DNA of 64,000 nt from an uncultured Chthonomonadaceae bacterium (GTDB lineage Bacteria; Armatimonadota; Chthonomonadetes; Chthonomonadales; Chthonomonadaceae). Shown here piece by piece: positions 12,005 through 58,692 of the stretch. The notes beneath the pieces are model-generated. The model saw nothing but the letters and a program-made list of their open reading frames with translations, did no database searches and was not told the origin of the DNA. The DNA lies in NCBI GenBank assembly GCA_963835065.1, contig CAWIEK010000049.1, positions 448,001 to 512,000 on the forward strand, in the 5' to 3' direction. The translations under genes were made by a program, and so were the position numbers. Position 1 is the first letter of the stretch, and every line of letters starts with the position of its first letter.

Positions 12005-13453
12005 ATGACGACCTTAGAAACCATGGACCCGATACAGGCTTCCATCAGCCAGGATTACAAATACGGGTTTAGCTCCGACATCGAATCCGAATCCATTCCC
12101 AAAGGACTGAGCGAAGACGTGATTCGGCTCATCTCTTCCAAAAAGAGCGAACCGGAATGGCTGCTGGAATGGCGGCTCAAAGCCTATCGCCACTGGCTGA
12201 CGATGGAAGACCCGCTCTGGCATAACGTCAAAATCGCGCCCGTAGACTATCAGGAAATCATCTACTACAGCGCTCCCAAGCCCAAAAAAGTCCTGAACAG
12301 TCTGGACGAGGTAGACCCGGAACTGCTGGAAACCTTTGAGAAATTGGGCATTTCGCTGACCGAACAAAAGCGGCTGACGGGCGTTGCCGTAGACGCCGTT
12401 TTCGACAGCGTTTCCGTAGCCACAACGTTCAAGGAAAAGCTGTACGACATGGGCATTATCTTCTGCTCATTCAGCGAGGCCGTCCAGAACCACCCGGAAC
12501 TGGTGCGCGAATACCTGGGTTCCGTCGTGCCCTATTCCGACAACTTTTTCGCGACCCTGAATTCCGCCGTGTTCAGCGACGGCTCGTTCTGCTACATTCC
12601 CAAAGGCGTTCGCTGCCCGATGGAATTGTCCACGTACTTCCGCATCAACGCCGCGAATACGGGACAGTTCGAGCGGACGCTGCTGATTGCGGATGAAGGC
12701 GCTTACGTGTCCTATCTGGAAGGCTGCACCGCGCCCATGCGCGACGAAAACCAACTCCACGCGGCTGTCGTGGAACTGGTTGCCCTCAAGGGAGCGACCA
12801 TCAAGTACAGCACCGTGCAGAACTGGTATCCCGGCGACAAAAACGGCAAGGGCGGCATCTACAACTTCGTCACCAAGCGCGGCAAAGCCTTCGAGAACGC
12901 CAAACTGACGTGGACGCAGGTGGAAACCGGCTCGGCAATCACGTGGAAATACCCAAGCTGCATCCTGCTTGGCGACAACGCGGTGGGCGAGTTCTACAGC
13001 GTCGCGCTGACCAACAACTATCAGCAGGCCGATACCGGCACAAAGATGATCCATATCGGCAAGAACACGCGCAGCACCATTGTCAGCAAGGGCATTTCGG
13101 CGGGCCGGGGCCAGAACACCTATCGCGGCCTTGTCAAAATCAATGCCGGCGCGGAAAACGCCCGCAACTACTCGCAATGCGACAGCCTGCTGATGGGCGA
13201 CCGGTGCGGGGCGCATACCTTCCCGTACATCGAAGTGAAGAACCCTACCGCGCAGGTGGAACACGAGGCGTCCACGTCCAAAATCGGCGAGGACCAGATT
13301 TTCTACTGCAACCAGCGCGGCATCTCGACGGAAGACGCGGTCAACATGATTGTCAACGGCTTCTGCAAGGAAGTGTTCCGCGAACTGCCGATGGAATTCG
13401 CCGTAGAAGCGCAAAAACTGTTAGGCATCAGTCTGGAAGGCAGCGTAGGATAG
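12005..13453 (+). CDS. sufB: Fe-S cluster assembly protein SufB
   Basis: YKYGF...[14 protein letters not shown]...GQFERTL...YLEGCTAP...NFVTKRG...EHEASTSKI...LEGSVG. Confidence 0.97.
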
Positions 13454-13562
13454 GTATTCAGGTGTTCAGGTGTTCAGGTGTTCGGAGGGGTGATATAGCA
13501 ACAATTTATACAAAAGCAGGAATCTTCCTGAACACCCGAATACCTGAATACCTGAACACCTG
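13452..13562. repeat. Inverted octamer-array element (AGGTRTTC)4 ... (CCYGAAYA)4
   Basis: Left arm overlaps the sufB stop codon; the right arm is its reverse complement. Confidence 0.9.
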
Positions 13563-13580
13563 CATTGTGTGGAGGGCGAC

Positions 13581-25834: not shown

Positions 25835-25940
25835 GTGTTCAAGCGCCTTTCCCAAAAGGGCGGCATTGGCGTCTGTAGGACGCTTGACCTTTCCTGCCGG
25901 GTACTTTCAGTACCCGGCCAACGGGGAGAGGCTCTCAGAT
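25835..25940 (-). ncRNA. Candidate Moco RNA motif (riboswitch-like leader)
   Basis: Minus strand has the hairpin GCCGGGTAC-TGAAA-GTACCCGGC and the bulged hairpin GCCGCCC-TTTT-GGGAAAGGC, like the CCUCCC/GGAAAGG terminal stem of the Moco motif; lies directly upstream of a molybdoenzyme operon. Confidence 0.45.
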
Positions 25941-29751: not shown

Positions 29752-31140
29752 TCATCCATCTAACCTGACCCCTGAATCCTGACCCCTGGCCCCTATTCTC
29801 ATCTTCACTCCCTCCCGCGGGCGCAGCGTAACGGCAGGCTGCAGCACAATGTTCTGACCGGACACGAGTTCAAAGCGGCAGGATTGCAGCAGGGTTGCCA
29901 GCACCAGAACGGACTCCATCAGGGCGAAGGTGTTGCCGATGCACACGCGCGGCCCGCCGCCGAACGGAAAATAAGCGTATTTGGGCAGGGTTCGGGCGAA
30001 ATCTCCCTCCCAGCGTTCGGGGCGGAACGTTTCGGGGTCAGGGAAAAAGCGGGCGTTACGATGAACGGCCCACTGGCTGATGATGATGGTGCTGCCTTTG
30101 GCAACGGCGTGACCGCCAATCGTACAATCGGCAAGGGCGCTGCGGCCAAGCACCCACGCGGGCGGATACAGGCGCAGGGATTCCTGTATCACCTGCTCCG
30201 TATACTTCAAGTTGGGCTTGTCGGCGGCGGTTGCGGGACGATTGCCCAAAACGGTTTCCACTTCCGCGCGCAGTTTCGCTTCCACGTCGGGATACTGCGC
30301 TAAGAGGTACAGCGTCCATGTCAGCGTCAGCGCGGTGGTTTCATGCCCGGCCAGAAACAGCGTCAGCACTTCATCCCGAATTTGCCTGTCCGTCATGGCC
30401 GCGCCGCTTTCGCTCCCCTCTCCTTCTTGCGCTTCCTCATCCTGCGCGCGCAGCAGCATGGACAGCAGATCGCCCTTGTCTTCCCCACTCGCGCGGCGAT
30501 CCGCAATCAGCTTGTACACAATCGCGTCGAGTTCGGCAACGGCGCGGGTCATTCCGGGCAAGCGCGGCGTGGGAACCCAGCCGGGCAGCATGGAAAGAAT
30601 GTGTATCCACTTTTGAAAATGGCTTTGCGTCAGTTCCAGCGCTTCCGACACGACACCCATGTTTTGCAGTTCCGAGCCGAACAGGGTTTTGAGCGCAATC
30701 GGCATCGTCAGCTGCGTCATTTCCTGATGAATGTCGCGCGTTTCGCCGTTGTTCCAGGTGGAGATATAGGAGCGCGTTTCGTCCACCATGATCTGCGCAT
30801 ACGCGGCAATGCGTTCGCGGTGAAACGCGGGCTGCGCCAATTTGCGCTGCCGCCGCCAGAAGTCGCCCTCACTCGTCAGCAGGCCGTTGCCGAACAGCAG
30901 CCTGCTGCGGCGCAGGCCGGGTCCCTTGCTGAAATTGCGGTACTGCGCCACCAGCACCTCTTCGATGTCGTCTGGATCGCCAAGCAGAAAGGCGCGGCGC
31001 GGCCCCAAACGCAGGGGAACCCAGTCGCCGTACTCGCGGGCGCAATACAGCAAAAAGTTGAGCGGGTCGCTGCGAAAAGCGGGCATGTGGCCCAACACAA
31101 CATTCCCCTTTGGGCTGTCAGCAAGCGCAGCAACAGACAT
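29752..31140 (-). CDS. Cytochrome P450
   Basis: AGHETTA I-helix, ESLR, PERW and FGGGPRVCIG heme-binding motif. Confidence 0.96.
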   Translation of the reverse strand: MSVAALADSPKGNVVLGHMPAFRSDPLNFLLYCAREYGDWVPLRLGPRRAFLLGDPDDIEEVLVAQYRNFSKGPGLRRSRLLFGNGLLTSEGDFWRRQRKLAQPAFHRERIAAYAQIMVDETRSYISTWNNGETRDIHQEMTQLTMPIALKTLFGSELQNMGVVSEALELTQSHFQKWIHILSMLPGWVPTPRLPGMTRAVAELDAIVYKLIADRRASGEDKGDLLSMLLRAQDEEAQEGEGSESGAAMTDRQIRDEVLTLFLAGHETTALTLTWTLYLLAQYPDVEAKLRAEVETVLGNRPATAADKPNLKYTEQVIQESLRLYPPAWVLGRSALADCTIGGHAVAKGSTIIISQWAVHRNARFFPDPETFRPERWEGDFARTLPKYAYFPFGGGPRVCIGNTFALMESVLVLATLLQSCRFELVSGQNIVLQPAVTLRPREGVKMRIGARGQDSGVRLDG

Positions 31141-31231
31141 AGACAAATTCTCCAATATTCATAGGAAACAGAATGATCGTTACTTCATGTACGTTCCGGC
31201 TTCCGTTCAAATTCGACACTTTTTCGTGTCC

Positions 31232-32894
31232 TCATGGCTGGGACTGCTGCATAAGCGCCCGTATCTGCTGCTGAAGAGTACGCGCCGATGGCGCATTGGG
31301 ATTTGCCTGCTTCAACTTTTGTAATTCTCTTTCGGCCTCGGCGGGCATGCCTGCTTTCACATACAGCAGGCCGCGCAGGTACAGAAAATCGCCCACGCTG
31401 TCTATTTGGCGGGCTGTCTGCGCATCCAGAACCTTGAACTGTTGGCTGTTGGAGAGAATATCCTCGCCGCTGCTGTTGGTGACGACAACCTGCCACGAAT
31501 ACAGGACGCCGGGACGCAAGGGTTTGCGCGGAGTCCATGTGGCAGTGGTCAGTTTCCCGCTGCCCGGAAGTTCAGCCGTGCTGTTTGCTTCCCGTATCTT
31601 GACTTCGTAATGCCAATTGCCGGCGAGCGCCTTCCATTGGAATTGCGGCGTTGGGGAAGCAACAATGGGGGCGACGGGCGCGAGCAAGGTAATGGCTCCT
31701 GCCCGCTCCTGCCCGCTGCCCATCGTCACCCCTGCTTGGGAGGCAACGCTTTTCATCTGCGCGCGGCCTGCCGCAAGGGCGGTTTCAGGATGGTCAAGCA
31801 GATGCGCCAGGCCAGCGTCCTGCTTTTGCAAGCGCGCTAAATTACCTTGCTTATCACGGAACCATTGTCCGCCCGCCGCCATTTCCGGCAGAGGAACAGC
31901 CCCGGCAAGCGGATTTTGCTTCAGCTGATTCTGCGCCGTTTGTAAGTCCTGCCGCGCTTGCAGAAACTTTTTTCTGAAGCTGCGCCACTTGCGTTTGGCT
32001 TTGCTGCGTTAATTGTGCTTCGCGCTGCCGGGCTTGTTCCAGGTCAGACTGGAGAAGCGCGGCTTTCGCATCATTTTCTGTTGCCTGCCTGACGCGCGCC
32101 TCATCCCGCGCCTCCATCTGCCTGCGCAGGGGCAACAAAAACCCGATTATCAGTACGCCTGCCGCAAACGCCGCCCCCACTCCGAAGGAGACGAGGGAAT
32201 TCGGCGCGAGAGTAAAGTTCGGCAGCCATTTCGCGCGCCGGCGCTGCCAACCTGTTTCTGCTATGGGTTCTTTGCCGGAAAGTGGCGCGTCATTGTTCGG
32301 CGGCGCGTCCGCTTTTGGAAGCGCGGCAGGCGCGGCGTCCGGGACAGGCAGCGGGGGAGCGGGCGCAGTAACAGGCGGCGCAAGCGGCGGCGCGAAGGCA
32401 GTTGAACCGGCCAGGGATTGAAACACCTTCTCGGCATCCGTGTGGAGTTCCCGCAATTCCCGCGCGTCCCGGCGGCACAAATGGCACTCCTGTAGATGGG
32501 TCTCGACTCGCGTTTTATCGGGCGCGCTGAGTTCATCGGCAGCGTAGCGAGAAAGGTCTTCCTGCGCGATACACCCCCAATCCTCTTCCTGCCAACTGTC
32601 TTCCGCTCCCTGCGCTTGCCTCCATTCCTCTGCCGCCCGCTCCGTCTCCTCCCACTCGCTTTCCGGCTTCGCGCTGTCCTTCCATTTCGCTTCCTGCACT
32701 TCGCTTTCCGTTCGGGCAAACAACTGCAGGAGTTGCGCTTCGACGGCAGGCGCTTGAGAATGCAGAGCGCGGCGGCATTGCTCACATTCGCTCAGGTGCG
32801 CGTTTGCGGCTTCGGCAAAGGGAGCAGGATGCCGCGCATGGCCGAGGATACGGTCAATTTCTGCGGGTGTCAGATGTGGATTGGTTTCATTCAT
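31232..32894 (-). CDS. Anti-sigma-like protein: two zf-HC2 motifs, TM, coiled coil, DUF928-like C-domain (indel near 31900)
   Basis: HLSECEQC and HLQECHLC; TM FGVGAAFAAGVLIIGFLL; C-terminal PTPQFQW...LRPGVLYSWQV...GLLYVKAG..AEAERELQKL. Confidence 0.75.
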
Positions 32895-33021
32895 CGGAGG
32901 TGATTCATCCAATTTCAAGGCAATTTCAAACTTCATGTCGCAGCAAAGTTGGGCGCTGCCATACATAACCGTTGGTGAGTTTCTATAATTCTTACATCAG
33001 AATGCCTGACAGCATGCGAAC

Positions 33022-34053
33022 TTACAACAGGGGTGGCTCACCAAGCCGCTTCCTTATCTGTTCCAGATAGTAGCAGCGCATGCGATGCACTGCGCCGGCC
33101 GTTTTCCCATAGCGAAGGGCCATTTCTTTATCCGGCAGCGGAAGGCGGTTCCAAATTGCCTGCATTGCATCAGGATCAATTTCCAATGCGGCGGCAACGG
33201 AGTCGCAGGGATTCTTTGAGGTTACAAAAGATTTGAGTTCCTCGCGGTCCCGCGCCAGCAGAATATAGGCGCGGAACGGCATAGGTACGCTGCAAATTGC
33301 CTGCCAGCAGGGTTCCCAATTCCATATAGTCTTCGGCTCTTCCGGCGCGGTAAGCCATTTCTCCGTATCCCTGTTCTCATTCTCGCCCGGTTCCGGTAAT
33401 GCAACGGTGACAAGCGGCAATTCCGCGCGCAGTTTCACCAGATGCGCAGCTAATGTATCTTCCTCCAGCGGCGTTTGTACCCATTCTAAAAGTTTTACCA
33501 ACAGTTCCGATAAGCTGACCTGCTTATAATTTGCCGGATGGCGTCCCTGTAAGGCTTCCTGTACAAATGTCGTATCGTCGTCGCGAAACGCGCTATATCG
33601 CCGCGTTTCCCGAAAATCCTCATGTTGCCAGTTGGCGAAGCCGACCAGCCATTTTTTCTTGATCTGCCAGCGCGCCAGAAGGGTGTTCAGCGGCGGCTGC
33701 CGTAATCTGTCGCGCACATCGCGTTCCATGCGGCCTTCCGGGGAATTCCGTCGAAATTCTTCATCAAGGAGACGGTCTACAATTGTTGCCGCCAATCCCA
33801 AAACGTTCGTAACCGGAGTCTTATTGTCGCGGTATCTTCTCAATTGGTTAAGGATTCTAAAACGCGCTGTCTGACACATATCTTCGGCATCGGTACGCGA
33901 AAACCCCTCCGCCGCTATACTTCGACGGATGAGTGGAGCAAGGTCGCCAAGAAGCGTTTCTTCCAGACGCTTAGACGCCTGCAAATCTATGGCAGCCGTC
34001 GCATAGTATTCCTCAAGCAGACCTGCCAATCGTTGGAGTTTCTCTGAATCCAT
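33022..34053 (-). CDS. Atypical ECF-type sigma factor with a long insert between regions 2 and 4
   Basis: GGAG RBS; region-2-like APLIRRSI...DAEDMCQ...LAATIVDRLLDEEFRR; C-terminal HTH LPDKEMALRYGKTAGAVHRMR. Confidence 0.7.
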   Translation of the reverse strand: MDSEKLQRLAGLLEEYYATAAIDLQASKRLEETLLGDLAPLIRRSIAAEGFSRTDAEDMCQTARFRILNQLRRYRDNKTPVTNVLGLAATIVDRLLDEEFRRNSPEGRMERDVRDRLRQPPLNTLLARWQIKKKWLVGFANWQHEDFRETRRYSAFRDDDTTFVQEALQGRHPANYKQVSLSELLVKLLEWVQTPLEEDTLAAHLVKLRAELPLVTVALPEPGENENRDTEKWLTAPEEPKTIWNWEPCWQAICSVPMPFRAYILLARDREELKSFVTSKNPCDSVAAALEIDPDAMQAIWNRLPLPDKEMALRYGKTAGAVHRMRCYYLEQIRKRLGEPPLL

Positions 34054-34080
34054 GCCTTCTCCGCGCCATCGCCACATTTT

Positions 34081-34283
34081 GCCGGGTATTTTCAACGCTT
34101 GCTGTGAACTACTGGCCGTGTGGTTTACCGGGGGTTGAAAACCCCTGTCTGGACAAAGCAAGCGTCTTTCAGACGCGCCCAGGCTTTCGGGAAGTTGCGT
34201 CTGGAAGACGCTTGCACTTTCCTGCCGGGGATTTTCAATCCCCGGCCAGTATTTCACAGCAAGCGTTGAAAATACCCGGCTAC
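34081..34283. repeat. Nested palindromic (BIME/REP-like) element of about 200 bp
   Basis: 38-bp near-perfect terminal inverted repeat GCCGGGTATTTTCAACGCTTGCTGTGAAMTACTGGCCG, plus inner inverted pairs GGGGTTGAAAACCCC / GGGGATTTTCAATCCCC and GCAAGCGTCTTTCAGACGC / GCGTCTGGAAGACGCTTGC. Confidence 0.9.
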
Positions 34284-34285
34284 AC

Positions 34286-37200
34286 TCATTTCCAATCGCC
34301 AACCATCTGGAACGCCGCCCAATAGTAGGGATGCTGCCAAAAATGTTTTTGGTCATGCATTACCGCGATTTGCGCCCGCTGCAGCGCGACATCTTTGCTT
34401 GCTCCCGCTTTGTACTCGGTGTAGAAGCGTTTCATCAAGGCGTTGGCGCTGTTGGCGTCCACCTGCCATAAACTCACGCCCACGCTGCGCGCGCCCGCAT
34501 ACTGGAAGGCCCGCGTCAGTCCTACGACGCCCTCAAATTGCGTTTGTTTCCCCAACCCCGTTTCGCAGGCGGAAAGCATGACCAGATCGGCGGGCAAATG
34601 CAGGCGCAGAATATCCGCAGCGGTCAGCAGGCCCTTATCCGCGCCGTCCGAACGGAGTACGAGGGCGGAAGAAAGCGGGTCGCCATTTACCAGCAGGCCG
34701 TGACAGGCCAGATGCACAATAGTGGCCTGCCTCCCCTGCTGTCGCAGCGGCACACTGGTGGCCTGCTTGCCGGTATACGCTTCCACGCGATTGCCGTACA
34801 GGTTTTTCAAATCCGTAATCTGCTGCGTGATTTGCGGGACGAACGGCAGATGCAGGTTGTTTTGCTCCGAAGCCGGGACGGCCAGCGCGAGGATTTTCCC
34901 GGAGTGGGAAACCTGTATCTGACGCAGTTCGCGGTACAGGCTCAGGGAGGCAATCACGTGCAGGGGTTTGGCCTCTATCAAATGCGTGACCGGTTTGGGC
35001 TTTGCCGAATGTCCGACCGGCTTGTCCGGTGGAGAGGTGACCAGAGCGGCAAAGGGAAGCATATTCAGAACGCCGTCGGGACACAGCAGCAGGCGGTCAG
35101 AAGCGGCAATCTCCTTCTGCGCGGGCGCGACCAGTTGCTGATAAAGCAGGCGGGCGATAGGTTGGTAACTGCCGTTCGTTAGCAGCGCCCCGCGCAAATT
35201 CCGAACTTCCCGGCCAAGCGTTTCCTCGCCGATAGCAAGCGGAATGACGCGAACCTCGGTTTTGTTGGTCACGACAAACAGGTAGCTTTGTTTCTCGCCA
35301 AGCGCATACGCCAGCAGCAGGGTTCCCTCGTTCAGTGTCTGCTGCGCTTCCGCAAACGTCAGCGGTTTGGGATAGTGCAAGCCCGCGTAATGCGGCGAGG
35401 TCTGGCGAACGGTTGTTTCCAATTCGCGCTGCTTCGCATCCAGCGCTTGAATCTTGTCGCGCAGTTCATTGGCTTCAGCCTGTTGCGAATTGGCAGCCGC
35501 CGCAAGTAATTTTCGCGCTAACTCGCTGCGTTGCTGGGTGATTTGCCGCTGTTCCGCCAACTCCGGGGGCGCATCCGGCAGGGGAAGCGTGGAGGCCGAT
35601 GGTTCCCGTTCGCTGATCAGGTCTACAAGGCTGCGGGCGCGGGCGCGTTCCAGCGTTTCAAACGCGCCTTCCTTCTGGTTCAGGGCGATTTGCGCCTGCA
35701 TCATTCCCAAAAAAGGAACGGAATAATGTTCCAGCAGAAACGCGCGGTTTTCGGGGTTGGCAAGCTGCCCGCGCCGCGCTTCCACAATGTTCACGGCGTG
35801 GTCAAATTGCTTCAAGGCGTCTTCATTCTTGTGCTGTTCCAGCAACGTATAGCCCAAACAACCCCGTGAGTAAGCTTCCTCCAGAGAGTCAGGAGCGAAT
35901 TTCAGCGTCAGGTCGAGCATCTGCTGAAAGTGGCTTTGCGCGTTGTTGAAGTCTTCCTGCCGCGCCTCAACATACCCAAGCAGGGCATAGCTTTCTATCA
36001 GACTCGCAGAAGCGGGGGAGGAGCGTTGTCGAATTGTCAGCAACTCCTGCGCGTACTGCCGCGCCGGTTTCCAGTGCCCTTGTTGGACGGCTGCCAGGCT
36101 CAGACCTTCCAGCAAGACAGCCCTTTCCGCCGGGTTGGAAGTATTTTTCAGTAAAACAGCCGCTTTCTGAGCGTATCCTTGCGCGTCCGACAAAGCGCTC
36201 TGTAGAATTGCGACCCCATCCAGAAGGCGCAAAACCGTCGCTGTTTCAGAAAGCGGCGAACCACAATTCTTACAAATGGCGAGAGCGCGTTTATAGTAAC
36301 CTTTCGCCTGTGGTAAATCTCCTTCATTAAGCGCGACGATTCCCAGTGTATCCAGGGAAGCACACATATCAAGGGGATAAGGCTTTTGCTTCTCATAAAT
36401 ATCAAGCGCCATCTGCGCGTACTTCCGCGCGTCGTCTAATTTATACTGTGGCAAGGCAAGAATTCCAAGTTGTGCGTAACAAGTCGCTTCCTCTTGTGTG
36501 CCGGGAAGAATTTTGTGGCGGATAGCCAGCGCTTCCCACATATATTCTTCCGCCTTCAGAAAATTTCCTGAACCACTCTCAACTAAGCCCAGGTGTACAA
36601 GAATATCCGCATGAACAGGAGAGCCGGGCATCTTCTTGCGGGCCAGGGAAAGCGCTTCTTCAAGATAGGGGCGCGCATGGCTGAAGTCTTCCTGCATCAG
36701 TGCGACGTGTCCCATGTTGTCAAGTATCACCAGCATTGTTTCGGGTCGAAGTTTTCTCGACGATAAATAACCAGCGCCTGACGCGAATACTCCATTCCCT
36801 GTGGTAAGCGGTTCTGGTTGAAAGCTGCAACTGCCAAATCAGCATAAAAACGATGGCAATATCCAACGAATCGGGCGCATGTTTTTGTAAAATGGCAAGC
36901 GCCGCCTCATAGTTTTTTTGCGCCTGCTGTATAATTGCCCTGCCCATCGTCGGCTCTGCCCAAGCCGTCAGAGCGCGTCTGCGGTCTGCCACGAAACAGC
37001 AGCCTGCGTCCGGCAGCGGGCAAGCGCCTGTTCATAAAGTTTACGCGCTTCCTTCCAATCCTGACGCACAATGGCAATGTGTGCTTGTTGCTCATGTCTT
37101 CGGCTTCCCAAAAAACGTTCCGGTTGGCGGCGTCCAAGTTGCCGCGCCTGCTCATACCATGTCAAAGGCTCCCGGTAGATCGTTTTGATATTCCCGCGCC

Positions 37201-37862
37201 TCGCCCAATGCAAACAGAATGCTTCTTTGTGCGGCGGCATCATCTCCCGTTTTCTCCACATTCTTCCAGGCGCGTTCCTGCCATGTCTGCACCTGTTTCC
37301 AGTCACTCCGAAGACGGTACATTTCGCCTGTTCGCCAGCACAGCCAGCCAGCCCCAGCAATATTGCCCGCCTTTTCCAGCGCTTCAATGGCGCTCTGCCA
37401 GGAAACCACGCCCTCTTCCATATGCCCGTTTGCAATATTTGTCAGTCCGGCGTCATACAAAGCTTGCAACGGAGCCGGCCATTGCGGACGAACGCGCACG
37501 TCCGACGCTTTGTCCGGCGAAAGTATTCCCGGCAATGGTACCGGCAAATGACCATCAGGGGCTGATTTGCCCGCAAGCCTTTAAGCGTGATGGCGGACCC
37601 GGACGCATTTTCCCGCGCCGCTACAAAATCAAACGCGGAGCGCAAAGGACGCGCGCCGCACCACTGCAACACATCGCCGACATGCAAACCGGCTTTTTCC
37701 GCAGAGGAACCCGGCGCAACCGCTTCCACACACCCCGGACGGCTGCGCATCATTCGGCGTTTGCGCCTGCCTGTAATTTGCAGACGCGGACTTGAACATC
37801 AGGCGGGAACCACCGACACACAGGACTACAACGACAACAAGGATACGTGAGGAAAACCGCAT
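34286..37862 (-). CDS. Signal/TM - PDZ - TPR - CHAT (caspase-like) protease (several indels between 36700 and 37560)
   Basis: N-terminal hydrophobic helix; VEAVAPGSSAEKAGLHVGDVL (PDZ); many TPRs; ERARARSL; VHLACHG and VMLSACETGLG catalytic dyad; HPYYWAAF end. Confidence 0.88.
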
Positions 37863-38190
37863 GAGAAACCTTCCTTCGATATTCTTCCCTGCGAACGTGA
37901 AAAAGCGCGTGGATATGCGAGCATTGAATAGACCTCTATATTCAATGCCCCTTACCTGTCTGTAAATTTTGCTTCGATAGTACAAATACCTGCTTCCTGA
38001 AAAACAAAAGATGAGGGAAAAAATTATTGAAAAATTTCTGGTAGTGTTGTAAGCCAGGCAAATTTTACACCAACTATGGAGACAAGAGCGGCGCAGGGTT
38101 TCGACAAGCCCAAGTTTTGGCCTCTTATGCCACTTTCAAGCCTGTATGGGTTGTGACGCTGGTACTTTCACTTCAGAAAGAGAATTTCTT

Positions 38191-39116
38191 ATGTACAAAA
38201 ACACGTTTAAGTCTCTGCGGCCTTTGTTTCCGGCAACGTTACTCGCTTGTTTATCTCTATGTGCCTCTACGGCACACGCGCAATTCTTAATTCGTATCGG
38301 TGACGCCGATGGCTTCGGCTACCAATCGGCTCCCGGATTCAGGGCGGCAAACGGTGGGCCGGCCAACCGTGACGGCTTGGGCATCCTTGGCAACAGGGAT
38401 TTCCTTCCCGACATCAATCGAGACGGCCAGACCGCGAGCGGCAGGGGAGATGATTTTGACCTGCGTACCGCCAACGAGATTGCTAACACCGCACTCACTG
38501 GCGGCTTTGGCGTGACCAATACCACGGGTACGCTTGGCTCGAAATTCACCGATATTTCTCTTTCGACAAGCTATGACACCAGCAGCGCAGCCAAAAGTGT
38601 CCTGATTGGCGGCAACCCGAACACAGGCTTAATTCGGGGCGCAGGCGGCGCTTTTCCGTCGCCTCCAGCGTCTTCCCTGCCTAATCAGCCGGGTTTCGTG
38701 TTCCACTTCAATGTGGATAAAACGGCTTTAAGTTCTTCGAGTTCGATTTTCTTCAATCTCGTCTTCGGCGACTATGATGTGACACGGCGGATATTCAGCT
38801 TACGGAGGCAGACAACACAACGCGCATCCTCAGTTTGGTGCAGCAGGACACAACCTCTGATGGCTTGATTCAAGCAGCCACCGCGAACCTCACCTTCGGA
38901 GACGTATTTACCGACGGCGGCTCAGTATGGATCGGGTCTCTAAAAGTGGACTTCATTGCCCCGAATGAACCCTACACTGCGTTTGACTACGTGGAGTTAA
39001 GTACCACTCCACTGGTTGCCGTACCCGAACCCGGCACAATCGCCCTGCTTCTGGCAGGTGGATTGAGTGGCACGGGATGGCTGATGCGCCGCAGACGGGC
39101 TAAACAAGTCGGGTAA
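38191..39116 (+). CDS. PEP-CTERM sorting-domain exported protein (indels near 38790-38835)
   Basis: Signal peptide ending AHA; C-terminal VPEPGTIALLLAGGLSGTGWLMRRRR. Confidence 0.85.
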
Positions 39117-40808: not shown

Positions 40809-43537
40809 GGCGTAGGGCGGCCCTGTGTTGAAGTTCCCGAGTGGCGCATTCTTTGCGGCGGGTTCATTTGCGTTGGGCTGCTTTGCATTAGAGTTTTCCG
40901 GCGCCGCATTGTCCTGCCCTGCCGCTTTTTGCGCCGCTTCCGCGTCCGCTTGCTGCTCCTGATGGAAGGTCGTCTGCTCTGCCTGCCACCTGCGCGCGGG
41001 CTGCGTTTTCGGTCCCGCCCTGCTGCTGTAAAGCCTTTTGCCATTCCGTTAGAACCTGATCGTACAGCGTGGTCAACCCGGCTGCTTTTTCGGGATTTTG
41101 CGCGCGCTGTAATTGGTAAATCTCGTAGCCGCGATGCTGCCAGTAAGCGCGAAGCAATCCGGCGGCTTTCTCGAACTGCGCCGCCGCTTCCTTTGCCTGC
41201 TGCCGCTCCAACAGCCATTTGCCAAGCCGCGCATGGGCAAAAGCGAACTCGGTTTCCGTCGCTTCCGGCATTGCGCGTACCGTACCGACAGGTGTTGCTT
41301 CCAGGCCGGCCATCTCCTGATAGGTTTGCGCAGACTGCGCCGCATTTCCCGATAAAGCCTGCGTTTCAGCCAGCGCGCGCAGGGTTTGCAGGTTATGCGG
41401 ATCATATATCGCGGGCGTTTTGCAGGGCGTCCAGAGCCGGCTTGTACGCAGTCGCGGCTCCTCCCTGCAAAACGCCGCTCAGGGCAAGCGGAGCATCGTT
41501 ACCGGAACTGTTTGCGCCTCCCAAAGCCTGCCGAATAGCCTGTCGCTTGTAAAACTGCCCTAACTGGTAGTACGCTTTGCCGGAGGGCGCAATTCGCGTT
41601 GCCTGCTCCAGCGCCATTCTCGCTTTATCCGGTTCTCCCATCATCTGGTATAGGCTGCTTGCTTTCGCCAGCGGTTCCGACGTAAACGGGTCTATATTCG
41701 CCGCAGACTGATAACTGTGCAGGGCGTTTTGCAGGCTGTCCCGCGCTCCCGCCGCGCCCTGCGCCTGCTGCTCCTGAAACTCGGCTACCGACAGCATGGC
41801 CTGCGCCGCCTGCAACCGCGATAGATAGGTCACGCCCCCGCGCCATGCCAGCAGCAGCGCGACAACGCCACACGCCGCCAACATTCCCTTCGACAAGGGA
41901 CGGGGCTTTTGCGTTGCAAGCGGGGCAATGTCCCGCGCCTGCGCCGTCAGAAGCCCGACAACCGCGCTCAGGGTCAGGGCGGTTGCCAGAATGTACCAGT
42001 CCGAATCGAACAGACTGTGCAGGATGGAACACACTATCGCCGCCAGCAATCCGGCTAATAGCAGGCGAGGCTCTTCAAACAATTGCCGATTGCCGATTGC
42101 CGATTTTCGATTTTCGATTTTCGATTTTCGATTTTCGATTTGGGCAGATGGCGTTGTGTTTTCCGGTAATTCTATATCGTTGATGTAGAGGTCGTTGGTG
42201 GCGGGATGCGCTTGTGACGTTGGGGCGTTTTTGGCGTTTGCGCGTGATTTGCCGGGAGTGTTTAGAAACAGGACGTAGACGGCGAAGGCGGACGAGGCGG
42301 CGAAAACAACGAGCAGGCACAGCGCGCCGGGTACGCCGGTTTCCGCCGTCCATTGCAAAAAGCTGTTGTGGGCATGGGCGGTGGGGGCGGCAACAGCGTA
42401 GCGCGGGTAGGCGGTTTCGTAGCTGCCGATGCCGGTTCCCGTCAGCGGGTTGGCGCGCGCCATGCCCAATGTCGCCGTCCATGTCACCTGCCGGAACTTG
42501 CCGGAATGGGCCTGCGTGTCCGCCGCTTCTCCGACACTGGCAACAGCAGCCGTCGCGCTGCCCGTCGCCTGCTTGCCCGTATTCGTCAGGCGAATCAGCA
42601 GGGGCGTAGACGCCAGCAGCGCGGACAGCAGCATCACGCCCAATCCGGCAAGCAACTGTCGGCCTCGCCCTCGCACAACGCCCACGCGCAGCAGCAACAG
42701 CAGCCATCCCACTACAACCACAAACAGCATTGCCACGCCCGCCCGCGAACCCGTCAGCAACAGGCACGCGGTTTGCAGCACAAGCCCCAAACCAACTAGC
42801 AGCTTGGCTTTACTTTCGCGGGCGGACACGAAGCACGACAGCGTTAAAGGCAAGGTCAGCAGCAGATACCCGGCAAGAAAGTCGGGGTTGAGAAACGTGC
42901 CGAACACGCGATGCGCGGAATTGCCCTGCTTCCACTGATCCAGATACTCGTGAATGCCCCACGCGCCCGCCAGACTTCCCGCCGCTATAATCACGAGAAG
43001 CAATGTAATTAGCGCGTTATGGTCACGGCCCAACCGTGACGCCAGCCCGCCGACTGTCAGCGCGGCCAGCAGCATGGCCCACGTATCCAGACGCGCCGCA
43101 TTGAGGGGCGGATGCGCGAACATGGAAACTGCTGCCCAAATTGTCAGCACACATGCGCCTCCCGCCAAGCCTCCTACCGCGCCAATCGCAACCGGGCGGT
43201 GCCACTCGCGGGCTATCGTCACGCCCAACGCCAGCGCGGCCACAACGCTGAGTATGGGTACGCTCATTATTTGCAGCCAACTAATCACATCTGCGGGCGG
43301 AACGGAGTTCAACGACGTAGACGCAAACACGCCCGCCATCAAGGGAGCCAGCAACAGCGCAAAGGCGACCAGGTACAACGCGATTTTATCCAGCGACGAC
43401 AGAGCGCGCGCATCTCGTTCCTGCGCCGTTTCAGACACGGATTCAGGCGCAGGCTTCACATTCCCTACAGGGCTATCCTCAAGGCCATCTTCATCAGCAG
43501 AAATATCAACAAGTCGCAAAGGCGGTGGTTCGGTCAC
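40805..43537 (-). CDS. O-antigen ligase (Wzy_C)-family membrane protein with TPR C-terminus (indels near 41000 and 41400)
   Basis: RVFGTFLNPDFLAGYL, TGSRAG, NPLTGTGIGSY, HAHNSFLQWTAETG; TPR-like helices; GTGA overlaps at both ends. Confidence 0.85.
42081..42143. repeat. In-frame heptamer array (RATTGCC)3(GATTTTC)5GATTTGG
   Basis: 9 x 7 = 63 bp; translated as QIENRKSKIENRKSAIGNRQL. Confidence 0.9.
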
Positions 43538-44820
43538 GAAGCGTCTCCGGGGCGGCGCAAACCGGAAGCCTCCGGGGGCGCAGTCGCCGCGTTGGTTATA
43601 GTTGAGTCAGGTACAGGCGAGCCGGTTATGGCTGCGTTGGTCAGGGCTGCATTAGTTAGGGCTGCATTAGTTAGGGTTGCATTAGTTACGGATGCATTAG
43701 TTAAGGTTGGAATGTGTGGCACGGCTGATAAATTCGGCAGCGCGGAAACTTTTGGCTCAACGGGCGCAGATCTTTTTTTACGCCACGCCGCCAGTTTGCG
43801 CTGCCAGTAACGGACGCGCCAGCGCAATATCTGCCCGACTGCCCGCAGCGCGATACCCGGCAAAATCAAAGGCCGCAGCAAAAAGGACGTTTGCGCCCGA
43901 TAGTGCTTTTTATAAAACAAATACTGGCTGCGATGAAATTCATACGTCATGCGCGTCGGAGCCTGATCGCTGCTTTTGCCGATGTAATGGTAGATGATGG
44001 CGTCGGGCAGGTAGGTAACGCGCCAGGTAAGGGAACAGGGAACAGGGAACAGGGAACAGGAGTCTTTAGTTGATAGTTGATAGTTGATAGTTGATAGGAC
44101 ATCCGCTCCTTCTGTCTTCTCTTCTGTTCCCTGTTCCCTGTTCCCTGTAACCTGTAACCTGTAACCTGTTCCCTTTTCCCTCACCGAAACGTGATTGGCC
44201 CGCCAGCACAAATCTACATCCTCGCAGTACATATAATAATCTTCATCGAAGCCGCCGATCTGGTCGAGGCAGGCGCGGCGGATCATCAGGGCGGCCCCGG
44301 ATACCCAATCCACATCACGGGGCGTGGCGTGGTCCCAGTTTTTCATCAGGTAGTCGGCGGCATGGCGGTTTTTGGGCAATAGTCGTCCGAGCGGCGTGTT
44401 GTGCAGAAAGCCGGTGGCAAGATTGGGATACTGACGGCACGAGTATTGCAGGCTGCCATCCGCATTGAGCAGTTTGGGGCCGAGAATACCCACATCGGGG
44501 TTGGCGTCGGCGTAATCCACGAGGCTTTTTAACGCGCCCTCCGTCACCTGCGTATCCGAGTTCAGGAACAAAACGTAACGCCCCGCAGAAGTGGGAATGC
44601 CGACATTGTTGCCCGCGCCGAAGCCCAGGTTCATCGGGTTGGCAATCAATTTTACCTGTGGAAACTCGCGCCGTACCATATCGCGGCTGTCGTCACTGCT
44701 GGCGTTGTCCACGACAATCACTTCCACATCCAGGCCGTTGTGCGGACGTGTCAGGGTTTGCAGGCACTCCTGCAGCAGTTTGCGGGTATTCCAGTTTAGA
44801 ATGATAACGGATAAATCCAC
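43534..44820 (-). CDS. GT2 glycosyltransferase (WbbL/RfbF-like) with a repeat-derived insert and pentapeptide tail
   Basis: SVIILNWN, VVDNASSD, FLNSD, DWVSGAALM, GGFDEDYYMYCEDVDLC. Confidence 0.92.
   Translation of the reverse strand: MDLSVIILNWNTRKLLQECLQTLTRPHNGLDVEVIVVDNASSDDSRDMVRREFPQVKLIANPMNLGFGAGNNVGIPTSAGRYVLFLNSDTQVTEGALKSLVDYADANPDVGILGPKLLNADGSLQYSCRQYPNLATGFLHNTPLGRLLPKNRHAADYLMKNWDHATPRDVDWVSGAALMIRRACLDQIGGFDEDYYMYCEDVDLCWRANHVSVREKGTGYRLQVTGNREQGTEEKTEGADVLSTINYQLSTKDSCSLFPVPCSLTWRVTYLPDAIIYHYIGKSSDQAPTRMTYEFHRSQYLFYKKHYRAQTSFLLRPLILPGIALRAVGQILRWRVRYWQRKLAAWRKKRSAPVEPKVSALPNLSAVPHIPTLTNASVTNATLTNAALTNAALTNAAITGSPVPDSTITNAATAPPEASGLRRPGDAS
44030..44181. repeat. Nested in-frame heptamer element (AGGGAAC)4-(AGTTGAT)4-(CTGTTCC/CTGTAAC)7
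   Basis: Inverted arms with a second array type inside; lies within the GT2 reading frame. Confidence 0.92.
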
Positions 44821-46823: not shown

Positions 46824-47727
46824 GCTTGTGTCTTTTCCGCGCTTGCAGCCAGGCGTGGGGCCAGGATGCGGCGGCGATGAGCAGGCGCAGGGGCCAGAAC
46901 CAGACAGCGCGGTAGTGCTTGGCGTAGAAGCGCAAAAGCCCACGCCGCGACTCCCAGGCCATTGCGCTGCCGACTTGGACGGTACTCGCGCCGCCATAGT
47001 GGATAATCTCGACTTCGGGCGTGAACCAGATTTTCCAGCCCGCCCGCTTGCAGCGCAGGCACCAGTCCACTTCGTTGAAGAAAATCGGGAAGGCCAAATC
47101 CATCAGGCCGACTTCTTCTATGGTTTGACGGCGCAGCAGCAGAAAAGTGCCCATCGGCTGATCCACTTCCGCTGTATGCGCGTAATCGAACCACGTCATA
47201 CGGTACGCGCCGAACACGCGGCTGCCTGGCAGCAGGCGGCTCAGGCCAAGCAGTTCCCATAGTACCGCCATAGGAGTCGGAAACCCGCGCACCGATTTTT
47301 GCAGGCTGCCGTCCGGGTGTACTTGCCGAACGCCCAACGCGCCCGCGTCAGGATGTTGTTCCATAAACGCGACGGCTTTTTCCAGCCCGCCGGGCGGCAA
47401 AATCACGTCTGGGTTCAATAACAGATTATACGCAGAACGCGCGCGTTGCAACGCCTGATTATTGCCTTCCGCGTAACCGGTATTGTCCTCATTGGCGATA
47501 AGCCGCGCCTGTGGAAACCGTTCCCGAACCGCCGCCGCGCTGCCATCATGCGAATTATTGTCAACGACAATCACTTCAAACCCAAAATTAGGCGGCGTGT
47601 CGTAAATACTGGCAAGCGCGCCGAGCAGCAAATCCCGCGTGTTCCAGTTGACGATGCAAATGGAGAGGAGGGTGTTCGGGTATTCGGTATTCAGGTGTTC
47701 AGGTATTCGGGTATTCAGGTTATCCAT
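46804..47727 (-). CDS. GT2 glycosyltransferase (WbbL/RfbF-like)
   Basis: SICIVNWN, VVDNNSHDGS, LLNPD, VDQPMGTFLL, FPIFFNEVDWC. Confidence 0.92.
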   Translation of the reverse strand: MDNLNTRIPEHLNTEYPNTLLSICIVNWNTRDLLLGALASIYDTPPNFGFEVIVVDNNSHDGSAAAVRERFPQARLIANEDNTGYAEGNNQALQRARSAYNLLLNPDVILPPGGLEKAVAFMEQHPDAGALGVRQVHPDGSLQKSVRGFPTPMAVLWELLGLSRLLPGSRVFGAYRMTWFDYAHTAEVDQPMGTFLLLRRQTIEEVGLMDLAFPIFFNEVDWCLRCKRAGWKIWFTPEVEIIHYGGASTVQVGSAMAWESRRGLLRFYAKHYRAVWFWPLRLLIAAASWPHAWLQARKRHKQVMNNE

Positions 47728-47820
47728 ATGCCTATTCCGCGTTCGCTGCCCAACGGTAAAACGTCATGCAAGTTACGCCTCTGCCTGAACACCTGAATAC
47801 CCGAATACCTGAACACCTGA
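47670..47820. repeat. Inverted octamer element straddling the HAD/GT2 junction
   Basis: (RGGTRTTC)6 at 47670-47720 and (CCYGAAYA)4 at 47784-47820. Confidence 0.9.
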
Positions 47821-48516
47821 CCACAGTTCGCCCACATCTTTGAGCAGAACATCGGGTGGGCAGGCGGCAAAGGCTTCGGGCTGCTGCTTGCGCAAGAAGC
47901 CCATTGTATGCATTTTAGCCGCGCGTCCGGCCTGTATATCCATAACGTGATCGCCCGCCATCAGGCAGTTTTGCGCCTGCAGGCGGCGTTCGGGAAACTT
48001 GGTTTGCAGGACGCGCAGGGCATCCATCAGATGGCCGGGGTGCGGCTTCACCTGTTCCACGTCCTCGCGGGACAGCAAAACGTCGCACTGCAAATCGCCT
48101 TCCACGAGCAGGCGGTCTGAAACCATGCGGCAATTGCGGGTAACGATGCCAATGGGAACACTCCGCCGGTTCAGGTAAGAAAGCAATTTGGATGCGCCGG
48201 ACAGTAAAACAGGATCGGCGCACTGCGCGGCCTCCTGCGCGGCCAGCATCGCAAACGCCGCGTCATGAAAGTTTTTGTGCGCCCCGCTCATCGTGATGCT
48301 TTGCAAAATCGCCGTGACGCGCTCCACAATCGAAAGAATGTCCATATCGCGCATATAATCTGTTTCTACGCCCCACTCCACGCCCAATGCCAGAGTCTTC
48401 TGCTTCATCTCAACAAAGTCAATATGCGTTTCAATCAGCGTGTTATCCAGATCAAACAAAACCGCGTCGCTTTGCAGCAGCAGGCGAACCGCCTTTTCAA
48501 TCATTTCGATGTGCAT
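47773..48516 (-). CDS. HAD-family hydrolase (phosphoglycolate phosphatase-like)
   Basis: VLFDLDNTL, GIVTRN, KPHP, AGDHVMDIQAG. Confidence 0.88.
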   Translation of the reverse strand: MHIEMIEKAVRLLLQSDAVLFDLDNTLIETHIDFVEMKQKTLALGVEWGVETDYMRDMDILSIVERVTAILQSITMSGAHKNFHDAAFAMLAAQEAAQCADPVLLSGASKLLSYLNRRSVPIGIVTRNCRMVSDRLLVEGDLQCDVLLSREDVEQVKPHPGHLMDALRVLQTKFPERRLQAQNCLMAGDHVMDIQAGRAAKMHTMGFLRKQQPEAFAACPPDVLLKDVGELWSGVQVFGYSGVQAEA

Positions 48517-58171: not shown

Positions 58172-58543
58172 GTGCAAATACCGGAGGGTTTGAAGTACGA
58201 CGGCAATGGATTGATTGCCGCAGTGGTGCAGGATGCGGCCAATGGCGACGTGCTGATGGTTGGTTACATGAACCGCGAGGCTGTGGAACGGACGCTGCAA
58301 ACAAAGCGCGTTACTTTTTGGAGTCGTTCGCGTCAACAATTTTGGGTGAAGGGTGAAACTTCCGGCAACGCGCAGCACGTTATAGAAGTCTATGTGGATT
58401 GCGATCAGGACTGCCTGCTCGTGAAAGTGGAACAAGTCGGCGCCGCCTGCCATGAAGGCTACCGCTCTTGTTTCTTCCGCCGCATTGCCCCCGACGGCAA
58501 CGAACTCGAAACCCTCGGCACACCGTTGATGAAAGCTTATTAA
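58172..58543 (+). CDS. hisI: Phosphoribosyl-AMP cyclohydrolase
   Basis: [44 protein letters not shown]. Confidence 0.96.
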
Positions 58544-58546
58544 TGC

Positions 58547-58667
58547 GGGTGTTCAGGTGTTCAGGTATTCGGGTTTCAGGAAATACAGAAGTACCGCAGT
58601 TTACTATGGCACAGCAAGTTGAATACCTGAACACCTGAACACCTGAACACCCGAATACCTGAACACC
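58547..58667. repeat. Inverted octamer element (RGGTRTTC)n ... (GAAYACCY)6
   Basis: Same unit as at 13452 and 47670. Confidence 0.9.
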
Positions 58668-58692
58668 GTTTTACGAAGGGAACTACCCATCC

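Follow-up and report, generated by a model that had tools for sequence, protein, structure and literature searches.

Three co-oriented genes at positions 31232 to 37862, on the minus strand of a 64,000-nucleotide stretch (hereafter the window) of contig CAWIEK010000049.1 from an uncultured Chthonomonadaceae bacterium, probably encode a proteolytic gene switch, in which a CHAT protease would cut the linker of a putative anti-sigma factor and later degradation would free a sigma-like factor. This reading draws on the conservation of the trio and on a linker residue of the anti-sigma that covaries with a predicted S1 pocket residue of the neighboring protease. A preliminary description of this DNA had proposed a similar cascade, with an exported caspase-like protease as the site-1 enzyme acting on a membrane anti-sigma, and that interpretation is partly supported overall. 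The shared compartment and the linker/S1 covariation speak for the site-1 role, whereas the cut itself is only predicted.

Composition and conservation of the trio

All three genes were found on the minus strand, as had been described. The protease gene encodes a CHAT domain (PF12770; E 4.6e-67, 226.9 bits against a cut-off of 24 in a profile search) with the previously noted His/Cys dyad intact in the motifs HLACHG (34714-34697) and LSACET (34576-34559). Based on domain score and dyad, the protein belongs to the CHAT (PF12770) proteases of clan CD and is a predicted protease. Its leader was taken as a signal peptide on visual judgement, without SignalP, and the orthologue from the same genus (L019) shares a signal-peptide-like N-terminus. 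A PDZ piece (PDZ_6, E 9e-5, under the cut-off, against 29.5 bits and a cut-off of 27 in the L019 orthologue) is separated from the CHAT domain by TPR repeats. The top Protein Data Bank (PDB) match of the CHAT profile was the structure 8rot of DdvA (E 5.7e-13); a sequence search of the PDB with the CHAT domain alone gave no useful match, and a metagenome scan with the window CHAT did not find relatives.

The third protein is a likely membrane anti-sigma and putative inhibitor of the sigma-like factor, by analogy with ZAS (zinc-binding anti-sigma) and zf-HC2 proteins, with which it shares an N-terminal zinc motif, a gene directly after the sigma and a single transmembrane (TM) helix. Both HxxxCxxC zinc fingers reported earlier were confirmed, zf-HC2 scoring 26.9 bits against a cut-off of 22.2. 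The modeled C-terminal part consists of a small domain, a floppy loop, a fibronectin type III (FN3) domain (best Z 11.1, root-mean-square deviation (rmsd) 2.5, 91 aligned) and TPR-like helices. The earlier label of a DUF928-like C-domain survives as a likely distant kinship: the DUF928 profile (PF06051) had no match in the window copy, 12 of 68 family members matched it at E<=0.01 (best 4.4e-5), and two members scored 21.5 and 22.6, under the cut-off of 26.

Conservation was assessed in 56 loci of the window's own phylum, 55 of which have a sigma match, and in the best 80 of 246 loci from a genome scan, which are mostly from Blastocatellia and hence closely related. The whole trio was present in 22/55 own-phylum sigma loci and 56/80 genome-scan loci, which supports, on gene neighborhoods, its conservation in two phyla. 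The 56 own-phylum loci contained a zinc-finger protein in 43 cases, an FN3-TPR domain in 34 and CHAT in 26; among the genome-scan loci, the zinc-finger protein was found in 78/80 and CHAT in 36 of the 45 with full flanks. A ZAS-type partner follows the sigma in 121/135 loci. Proteases (CHAT or C14) occur in 17/23 full-flank own-phylum loci with FN3-TPR and in 3/17 without it (n=40), a C14 caspase-family gene replacing CHAT in four own-phylum loci. Gene order varies, with CHAT on the opposite strand in Blastocatellia, and the order of the window recurs, for example, in L067, L073, L084, L088, L094, L096 and L098.

The His/Cys dyad is intact in 94/95 paired proteases; in the paired CHAT of L033:3265-6183 the catalytic His is replaced by Asp, with no change to the Arg linker or the acidic pocket residues. 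In L028, L074, L077 and L089, and also in L185, L099 and L072, the sigma/anti-sigma pair has a neighboring C14 gene with a hydrophobic leader, either instead of or together with CHAT.

Judged by hydrophobicity, most proteases have a leader and most anti-sigmas a TM helix. Both are absent in L025, L031 and L195, which fall in one clade and therefore represent one joint-loss event; L032 is similar, but its CHAT is truncated by the contig end. L102 is a possible exception, with a TM helix in the anti-sigma and an unclear protease leader. This pattern, with both proteins mostly exported and both lacking export or TM segments in one clade, supports the view that the protease and the C-domain of the anti-sigma occupy the same predicted compartment.

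Linker motif and pocket covariation

We aligned 106 anti-sigma C-regions and found the motif [LTVMI][RML][GS] 8-18 residues ahead of the invariant Pro that opens the FN3 domain in 55/68 linkers, against only 1-9/68 across seven neighboring segments of the sequence. The motif lies ~14 residues before the FN3 domain and reads VTMGS in the window, where it sits in a loop with a predicted local distance difference test (pLDDT) score of about 56. The would-be P1' residue is small, as at the R/S site of the CHAT protease HetF (slashes mark scissile bonds here). The middle residue of the motif is not always Arg and therefore allows a covariation test.

An unbiased column scan over 95 protease/linker pairs (effective number about 33) returned, as the best column under an acidic rule, the Glu of an LPxAxxE helix following the first strand (alpha1). 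Glu occupies this position in 30/30 pairs with an Arg/Lys linker, and 17/17 proteases without it stand beside Met/Leu linkers. After thinning to 44 rows (24 Arg/Lys, 20 Met/Leu), alpha1 was the sole column of 88 with no deviant in the Arg class. The 12 losses of Glu need 8-9 changes on the tree, and among 11,371 + 12,589 + 11,459 independent traits that were simulated, 0 confined their losses to the Met/Leu class. These pairs test the combination of CHAT with an FN3-TPR neighbor, because some of the 95 partners are without a detected zinc finger and those of L243 and L244 are secreted. Omitted rows were L099 and L207 (motif unclear), L190, L214 and L019 (CHAT broken), L203 (distant, partial), L205 (duplicate) and loci with CHAT frames <690 aa.

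The other pocket column lies four residues after the Trp of the L5 loop (W+4). Asp at W+4 accompanied Arg, and other residues Met/Leu, in nearly all of the 68 pairs first compared, a pattern with only 3 independent contrasts behind it. Asp is found there in 22/30 Arg/Lys-paired proteases and also in separase (WDVTD). In clan CD, S1 specificity is set by alpha1/L1, L4 and L5 according to the accessible part of the source (PMC4357240); our two columns were placed in alpha1 and L5 from the order of the motifs rather than from a solved structure. Members of the window clade (L019, L100, L101), like the window itself, combine Gln and Ala/Leu in the predicted pocket with Met/Leu linkers, and in the sister rows L025 and L223 an Arg linker goes with Glu and Asp (branch support 97-98). 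As read from these alignments, the window clade has lost both acidic pocket residues and carries Met/Leu linkers. Taken together, covariation between the anti-sigma linker residue and the predicted S1 residue of the adjacent protease is supported, and it supports the predicted cut at VTM/GS. Complex prediction with the CHAT region (500 aa) and the anti-sigma C-region (224 aa) scored 0.00 and counts neither for nor against.

Elsewhere in the window's genome, secreted FN3-TPR proteins adjoin TPR-CHAT genes at L243:7083-11915 (C63) and L244:5836-10208 (C44). These loci are without zinc fingers or sigma, and have the Arg form of the linker motif, with Glu and Asp in both CHATs.

Proposed mechanism, alternatives and state of the window copy

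In the proposed mechanism, the tandem zinc fingers would hold the sigma-like factor, in analogy to DdvA and other ZAS anti-sigmas, and the TPR arm would keep the protease at rest until an envelope signal arrives, PDZ being a possible extra input in the window clade only. The linker residue would enter the S1 pocket, and a cut after the Met of VTM/GS would release the FN3-TPR part. The stub would be trimmed, after which an RseP-like protease from another locus would cleave it within the membrane; in the TM-less clade, cytoplasmic proteases may degrade it instead. An RseP-like M50 gene is indeed present elsewhere in the window's genome. The cascade had been called self-contained, which is overstated because the site-2 step would need this protease from elsewhere and because a stub of ~135 residues would be left.

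Several results weigh against this reading. The stub of ~135 extracytoplasmic residues would need trimming, being by the size-filter rule a lot for direct RseP action, and the covariation also fits an uncut pseudosubstrate. The alpha1 rule is one-way, as 48/65 Met/Leu pairs keep the Glu, mostly in one Blastocatellia cluster; the column was chosen after the scan rather than beforehand, and P1 was assigned manually in L031, L082, L115, L143, L170, L212 and L242. An independent-pairs sign test did not reach significance (median p 0.25-0.5 with 4-5 starred pairs), but no starred pair ran opposite to the rule. A blind test of W+4 in 60 new loci, with P1 called by a fixed rule before the proteases were read, half held: Asp was present at 8/15 Arg linkers and 2/13 Met/Leu linkers, leaving non-Asp beside 11/13 of the latter. 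W+4 Asp as the sole specificity residue was rejected on this result; its equation with the P1-binding residue D2151 of separase was rejected as well, since D2151 lies at W+8 (D2151 as given in the available text of PMC9729208). PDZ was found in 1/24 sampled partner-protease N-termini, plus L019, L025 and L031 of the window's own clade, and the PDZ gating proposed in the preliminary description is therefore not general, although the piece itself is present in this clade. No CHAT lies within 8 kb in 9/45 full-flank acidobacterial loci. For DdvA itself, autoproteolysis by CHAT is only proposed in the accessible part of its description, being untestable until the signal is found (PMC11506125).

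It is also conceivable, if unlikely, that the linker is a pseudosubstrate or tether in the S1 pocket, holding the protease inactive or coupling it to the membrane protein, so that a signal would alter the complex and be passed through the predicted coiled coil, or would free the protease for other targets. The pocket/linker covariation requires binding only, the secreted proteins of L243 and L244 bear the same motif beside CHATs in loci without zinc finger or sigma, and the substituted His of L033 and the long stub, awkward for RseP, fit this view, as does the normal repression reported in DdvA dyad mutants (PMC11506125, in the text available). Retention of both His and Cys in all but one of the paired proteases, the small HetF-like P1' residue and the position of the motif in a disordered loop argue instead for cleavage. 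An improbable alternative is that the protease is an output gene acting on other proteins, with the sigma/anti-sigma pair run by ordinary envelope proteases or zinc loss. Members of the same sigma family do occur without a nearby CHAT, beside symporter-fused anti-sigmas or Ser/Thr kinases, the Blastocatellia CHAT is on the opposite strand, and the window's genome (8.0 Mb, 71 contigs) encodes about ten CHAT genes; but the proteases track FN3-TPR, share its predicted compartment and covary with the linker residue.

Another improbable reading is that the middle protein does not function as a sigma, and would act through its inserted domain as a DNA-binding activator or a decoy for RNA polymerase (RNAP). 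Its sequence matches are weak (Sigma70_r2 E 0.022; TIGR02937 17.8 bits, below the cut-off of 42.9), and a Foldseek search of the model gave no match at E<=0.001 (best 0.036) among the 50 matches listed, although all 50 are sigma or RNAP-complex chains. Part of the insertion weakly resembles the N-terminal domain of RNAP delta (E 0.02-0.04), which is a lead only, and an Atlas search with the insertion returned one unnamed cluster at 0.76. Counts of 7-mers upstream of 79 sigma genes revealed no shared promoter motif (the top 7-mer occurred in 17), which counts against sigma identity; scans for sigma70 promoters and terminators were at chance level.

In favor of a sigma, the AlphaFold model of the protein (17 sequences; pLDDT 82.7, predicted template modeling score 0.51) contains both expected folds, as the preliminary description required. 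Residues 1-100 superpose on region 2 of SigC (Z 11.2, rmsd 2.0, 86 aligned) and residues 240-339 on region 4 of sigmaE (Z 7.7, rmsd 2.5, 66 aligned), the latter also matching SigF (Z 7.6, rmsd 1.6, 57 aligned), a Z that is middling on its own. TIGR02937 is matched at E<=0.1 by 16/17 members of the family, most sigma loci have the ZAS-type partner noted above, and a D-A-E-D-like region-2 motif is retained, for which core binding is the role given in the consulted part of the PMC7826278 supplement. The layout comprises sigma2 (residues 1-102), an insertion and linker of ~135 residues, ~110 of them folded into an alpha/beta domain, and a sigma4 with an internal insert (residues 240-339). Sigma factors of the extracytoplasmic function (ECF) type have a short sigma2-sigma4 linker of under ~50 aa. 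The earlier ECF-like designation thus holds by modeled fold and fails on linker length and profile score; with ~135 residues separating its two domains, the protein is not a plain ECF sigma.

The sigma family is large, with 1,567 representatives (clusters at 50% identity) at E<=1e-30 that are mostly unnamed and annotated in the Atlas as hypothetical proteins, and it occurs in 50/301 genomes of the window's phylum. Members with a duplicated sigma4-like C-terminal segment were seen at L031:7290-8753 and L032:3613-5058. In L022:8147-10956 (C49:319146-321955 of the window's genome), L021, L023, L024 and L066, the sigma is accompanied by tandem zinc fingers fused with a PF00375 sodium:dicarboxylate symporter (E 1e-70 to 1e-94), and CHAT is absent from the vicinity; it is possible that this fusion is a transporter-sensor anti-sigma. 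At L029:6332-8545, L083:2234-9106 and L081 the sigma precedes a Ser/Thr kinase or lies amid FHA-like genes without an anti-sigma, and one of these sigmas appears to have an FHA-like N-terminal extension. In L020:8291-15147, a NACHT protein (weak Lon_C match) and HEAT-repeat genes come after a sigma and a tandem zinc-finger gene. Two groups in the window's genome involve other sigmas: L242 (C48:2801-11070) is a sigma/partner/CHAT group whose ECF-like sigma is outside this family, and G000:C11:107383-113215 has a short ECF-like gene, a putative anti-sigma, a TPR-CHAT and a secreted protein.

Beyond the switch itself, we tentatively suggest, as a less than even prospect, a large unclassified family of lock-and-key switches in which each exported CHAT would cut only its own anti-sigma. 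The pocket/P1 code would have shifted between Arg and Met/Leu on many occasions, insulating paralogues, and the output would be a novel class of sigma whose inserted domain may be a winged helix and which also uses other sensors, such as transporter-fused anti-sigmas.

A question separate from the family mechanism is whether the window copy is a decaying pseudogene rather than one affected by sequencing indels, which we consider doubtful. There are ~6 frameshifts at 37750-36740, in the first 1.1 kb of the protease gene, and one near 31970 in the anti-sigma gene; these ~7 frameshifts in the 6.6-kb locus exceed the background, which is 12 in 54 kb (0.22 per kb) against orthologues of the same-genus genome G002 and 5 in 83 kb (0.06 per kb) against G001, with 0 in 14 genes in a separate check. 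The dispersed palindromic repeat inserted between the protease and sigma genes likewise favors decay; it has 259 BLAST hits in the genome and high depth in public soil contigs, and the protease-sigma gap is ~20 nt in the same-genus orthologue. On the other side, the breaks are clustered, and the remaining 2.45 kb of the protease gene (its last 816 codons, 36736-34286) reads through with the dyad intact. Short runs or dinucleotide repeats coincide with some breaks, 11/54 background genes also have indels, the same-genus orthologue is broken at other places, and a 151-nt contig of a relative (~90% alike, depth 2) shows one additional base at a break, the only frameshift of the locus that public contigs bridge. 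The argument for the family is based on intact relatives and not on the window copy.

Features of the locus are collected below. A divergent, frameshifted PEP-CTERM protein gene lies upstream of the trio (38146-39116, plus strand) and a cytochrome P450 gene downstream (29752-31155, minus strand); as far as examined, these neighbors recur in the same-genus genome only. Imperfect 7-/8-nt tandem repeats occur at 13445-13571, 47678-47836, 58540-58678, 42078-42155 and 44058-44106, some as inverted pairs and some in coding frames.

Predicted features of the trio locus, in order along the minus strand
Feature	Position	Strand	Basis or remark
Signal-PDZ-TPR-CHAT caspase-like protease gene	37862 to 34286	minus	ATG at 37862; frame calls and CHAT match
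Predicted signal peptide	37776..37862	minus	Basic start, hydrophobic core, A-x-A end; by eye
PDZ domain piece, clade-specific	37560..37741	minus	PDZ_6 profile
Gln at alpha1 position, predicted S1 pocket residue	34820..34822	minus	Glu in the Arg/Lys-paired proteases
Catalytic His of HLACHG	34700..34702	minus	Protease frame
Catalytic Cys of LSACET	34565..34567	minus	Protease frame
Ala at W+4 of L5 loop (WQVDA)	34454..34456	minus	Protease alignment
Dispersed palindromic repeat	34081..34285 (or 34290); also 25862-25920		BLAST
Sigma70-family protein, 343 aa, frame intact	34053 to 33022	minus	Fold and weak profile matches
Likely anti-sigma (two ZAS-type motifs, TM, predicted coiled coil, small domain, linker, FN3, TPR-like helices)	32894 to 31232	minus	
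First HxxxCxxC motif	32775..32798	minus	Motif search
Second HxxxCxxC motif, zf-HC2 match	32475..32498	minus	Motif and profile
Predicted TM helix, single	32136..32192	minus	Kyte-Doolittle mean 2.23 over 19 residues
VTMGS linker motif, predicted cleavage site	31715..31729	minus	Low-confidence loop; Met P1 at 31723-31721
FN3 domain, distant DUF928-like	31421..31702	minus	Model superposition

Comparison with known systems

The field has yet to establish whether the site-1 cut of an anti-sigma can be made by a CHAT domain. With a candidate cut site specified and a pocket residue that changes alongside it, the split version makes cleavage and swap experiments possible without knowing the signal. If true, the reading would make caspase-like proteases part of everyday envelope signaling in abundant soil bacteria, delineate a sigma family that is large and unannotated, and suggest a simple rule for CHAT specificity from sequence. 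A full-text literature search returned no description of the trio, most subscription papers being outside its reach; the systems below are compared as they appear in the accessible portions of the cited papers.

The locus is free of CRISPR, as the preliminary description had it: no regularly spaced repeat array was found among the 20 largest of the 39 repeat families of the window, no cas family matched among 11 locus proteins scanned, and the nearest cas1 is about 200 kb away in the genome. The matches in a defense scan of the locus proteins were limited to a generic TPR model and DpdF, the latter weak. The Craspase system of Csx29, Csx30 and CASP-sigma resembles our proposal in that a TPR-CHAT protease cuts a sigma inhibitor (PMC10028731, PMC9729208), but it is cytoplasmic and triggered by RNA through Cas7-11, and its inhibitor Csx30 does not belong to the ZAS membrane proteins. 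Cleavage by Csx29 follows Met or Leu (PMC11506125, PMC9729208), and the S. brodae enzyme has Ser at W+4; the window protease scores 24 against a cut-off of 300 with the Csx29 model NF041237. With no array or cas match found, the locus is not, on sequence grounds, a type III-E Craspase accessory module.

HetF of Anabaena is a CRISPR-independent CHAT protease that cuts PatU3 at R117/S118 (PMC9457339). HetF/PatU3/HetZ and the trio would share a separately encoded inhibitor of a regulator and a site with a small P1' residue, whereas the HetF pathway is linked to the divisome and the heterocyst, and a ZAS/FN3 architecture is absent from the part of its description available. Profile searches gave no match to the HetZ or PatU3 families for the trio proteins, including HetZ for the sigma-like protein. 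ECF54 sigmas lie near TPR-CHAT proteins suggested to have a part in regulation, with subtilase and carboxypeptidase-regulatory genes as neighbors (PMC7826278). That group is described as 100% actinobacterial with no putative anti-sigma, in contrast to the conserved tandem-ZAS partner of the present sigma family, and membership in ECF54 was rejected on the frequency of that partner. RseA/DegS/RseP is similar in the proposed site-1 cut of an extracytoplasmic domain (PMC10028731, PMC11506125), and in the PDZ on the protease of the window clade and the RseP-like gene of its genome, but the site-1 enzyme here would be a dedicated clan CD cysteine protease encoded beside its anti-sigma.

The closest features are those of DdvA/DdvS of Myxococcus xanthus (PMC11506125; PDB 8rot), likewise comprising an ECF-type sigma, a zinc-binding membrane anti-sigma and an extracytoplasmic TPR-CHAT with a His/Cys dyad. 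Its authors call DdvA the one anti-sigma with TPR-CHAT that has been characterized, know it from Myxococcota plus one Comamonas species, and propose its CHAT as the site-1 protease ahead of RseP (PMC11506125). DdvA fuses TPR-CHAT to the anti-sigma, whereas the protease is a separate gene in all trio loci examined, on which ground a DdvA-like anti-sigma, with ZASD, TM and TPR-CHAT in one chain, was rejected. The trio further differs in its two zinc fingers, FN3-TPR tail, large sigma insertion and lack of an adjacent CRISPR/CBASS island. Judged from sequence comparison, the trio is real and conserved and is probably a split variant of CHAT-gated anti-sigma proteolysis, with cleavage predicted, and what is new in it is the conserved [LTVMI]-[R/M/L]-[G/S] linker motif before FN3 and its covariation with the predicted protease pocket.

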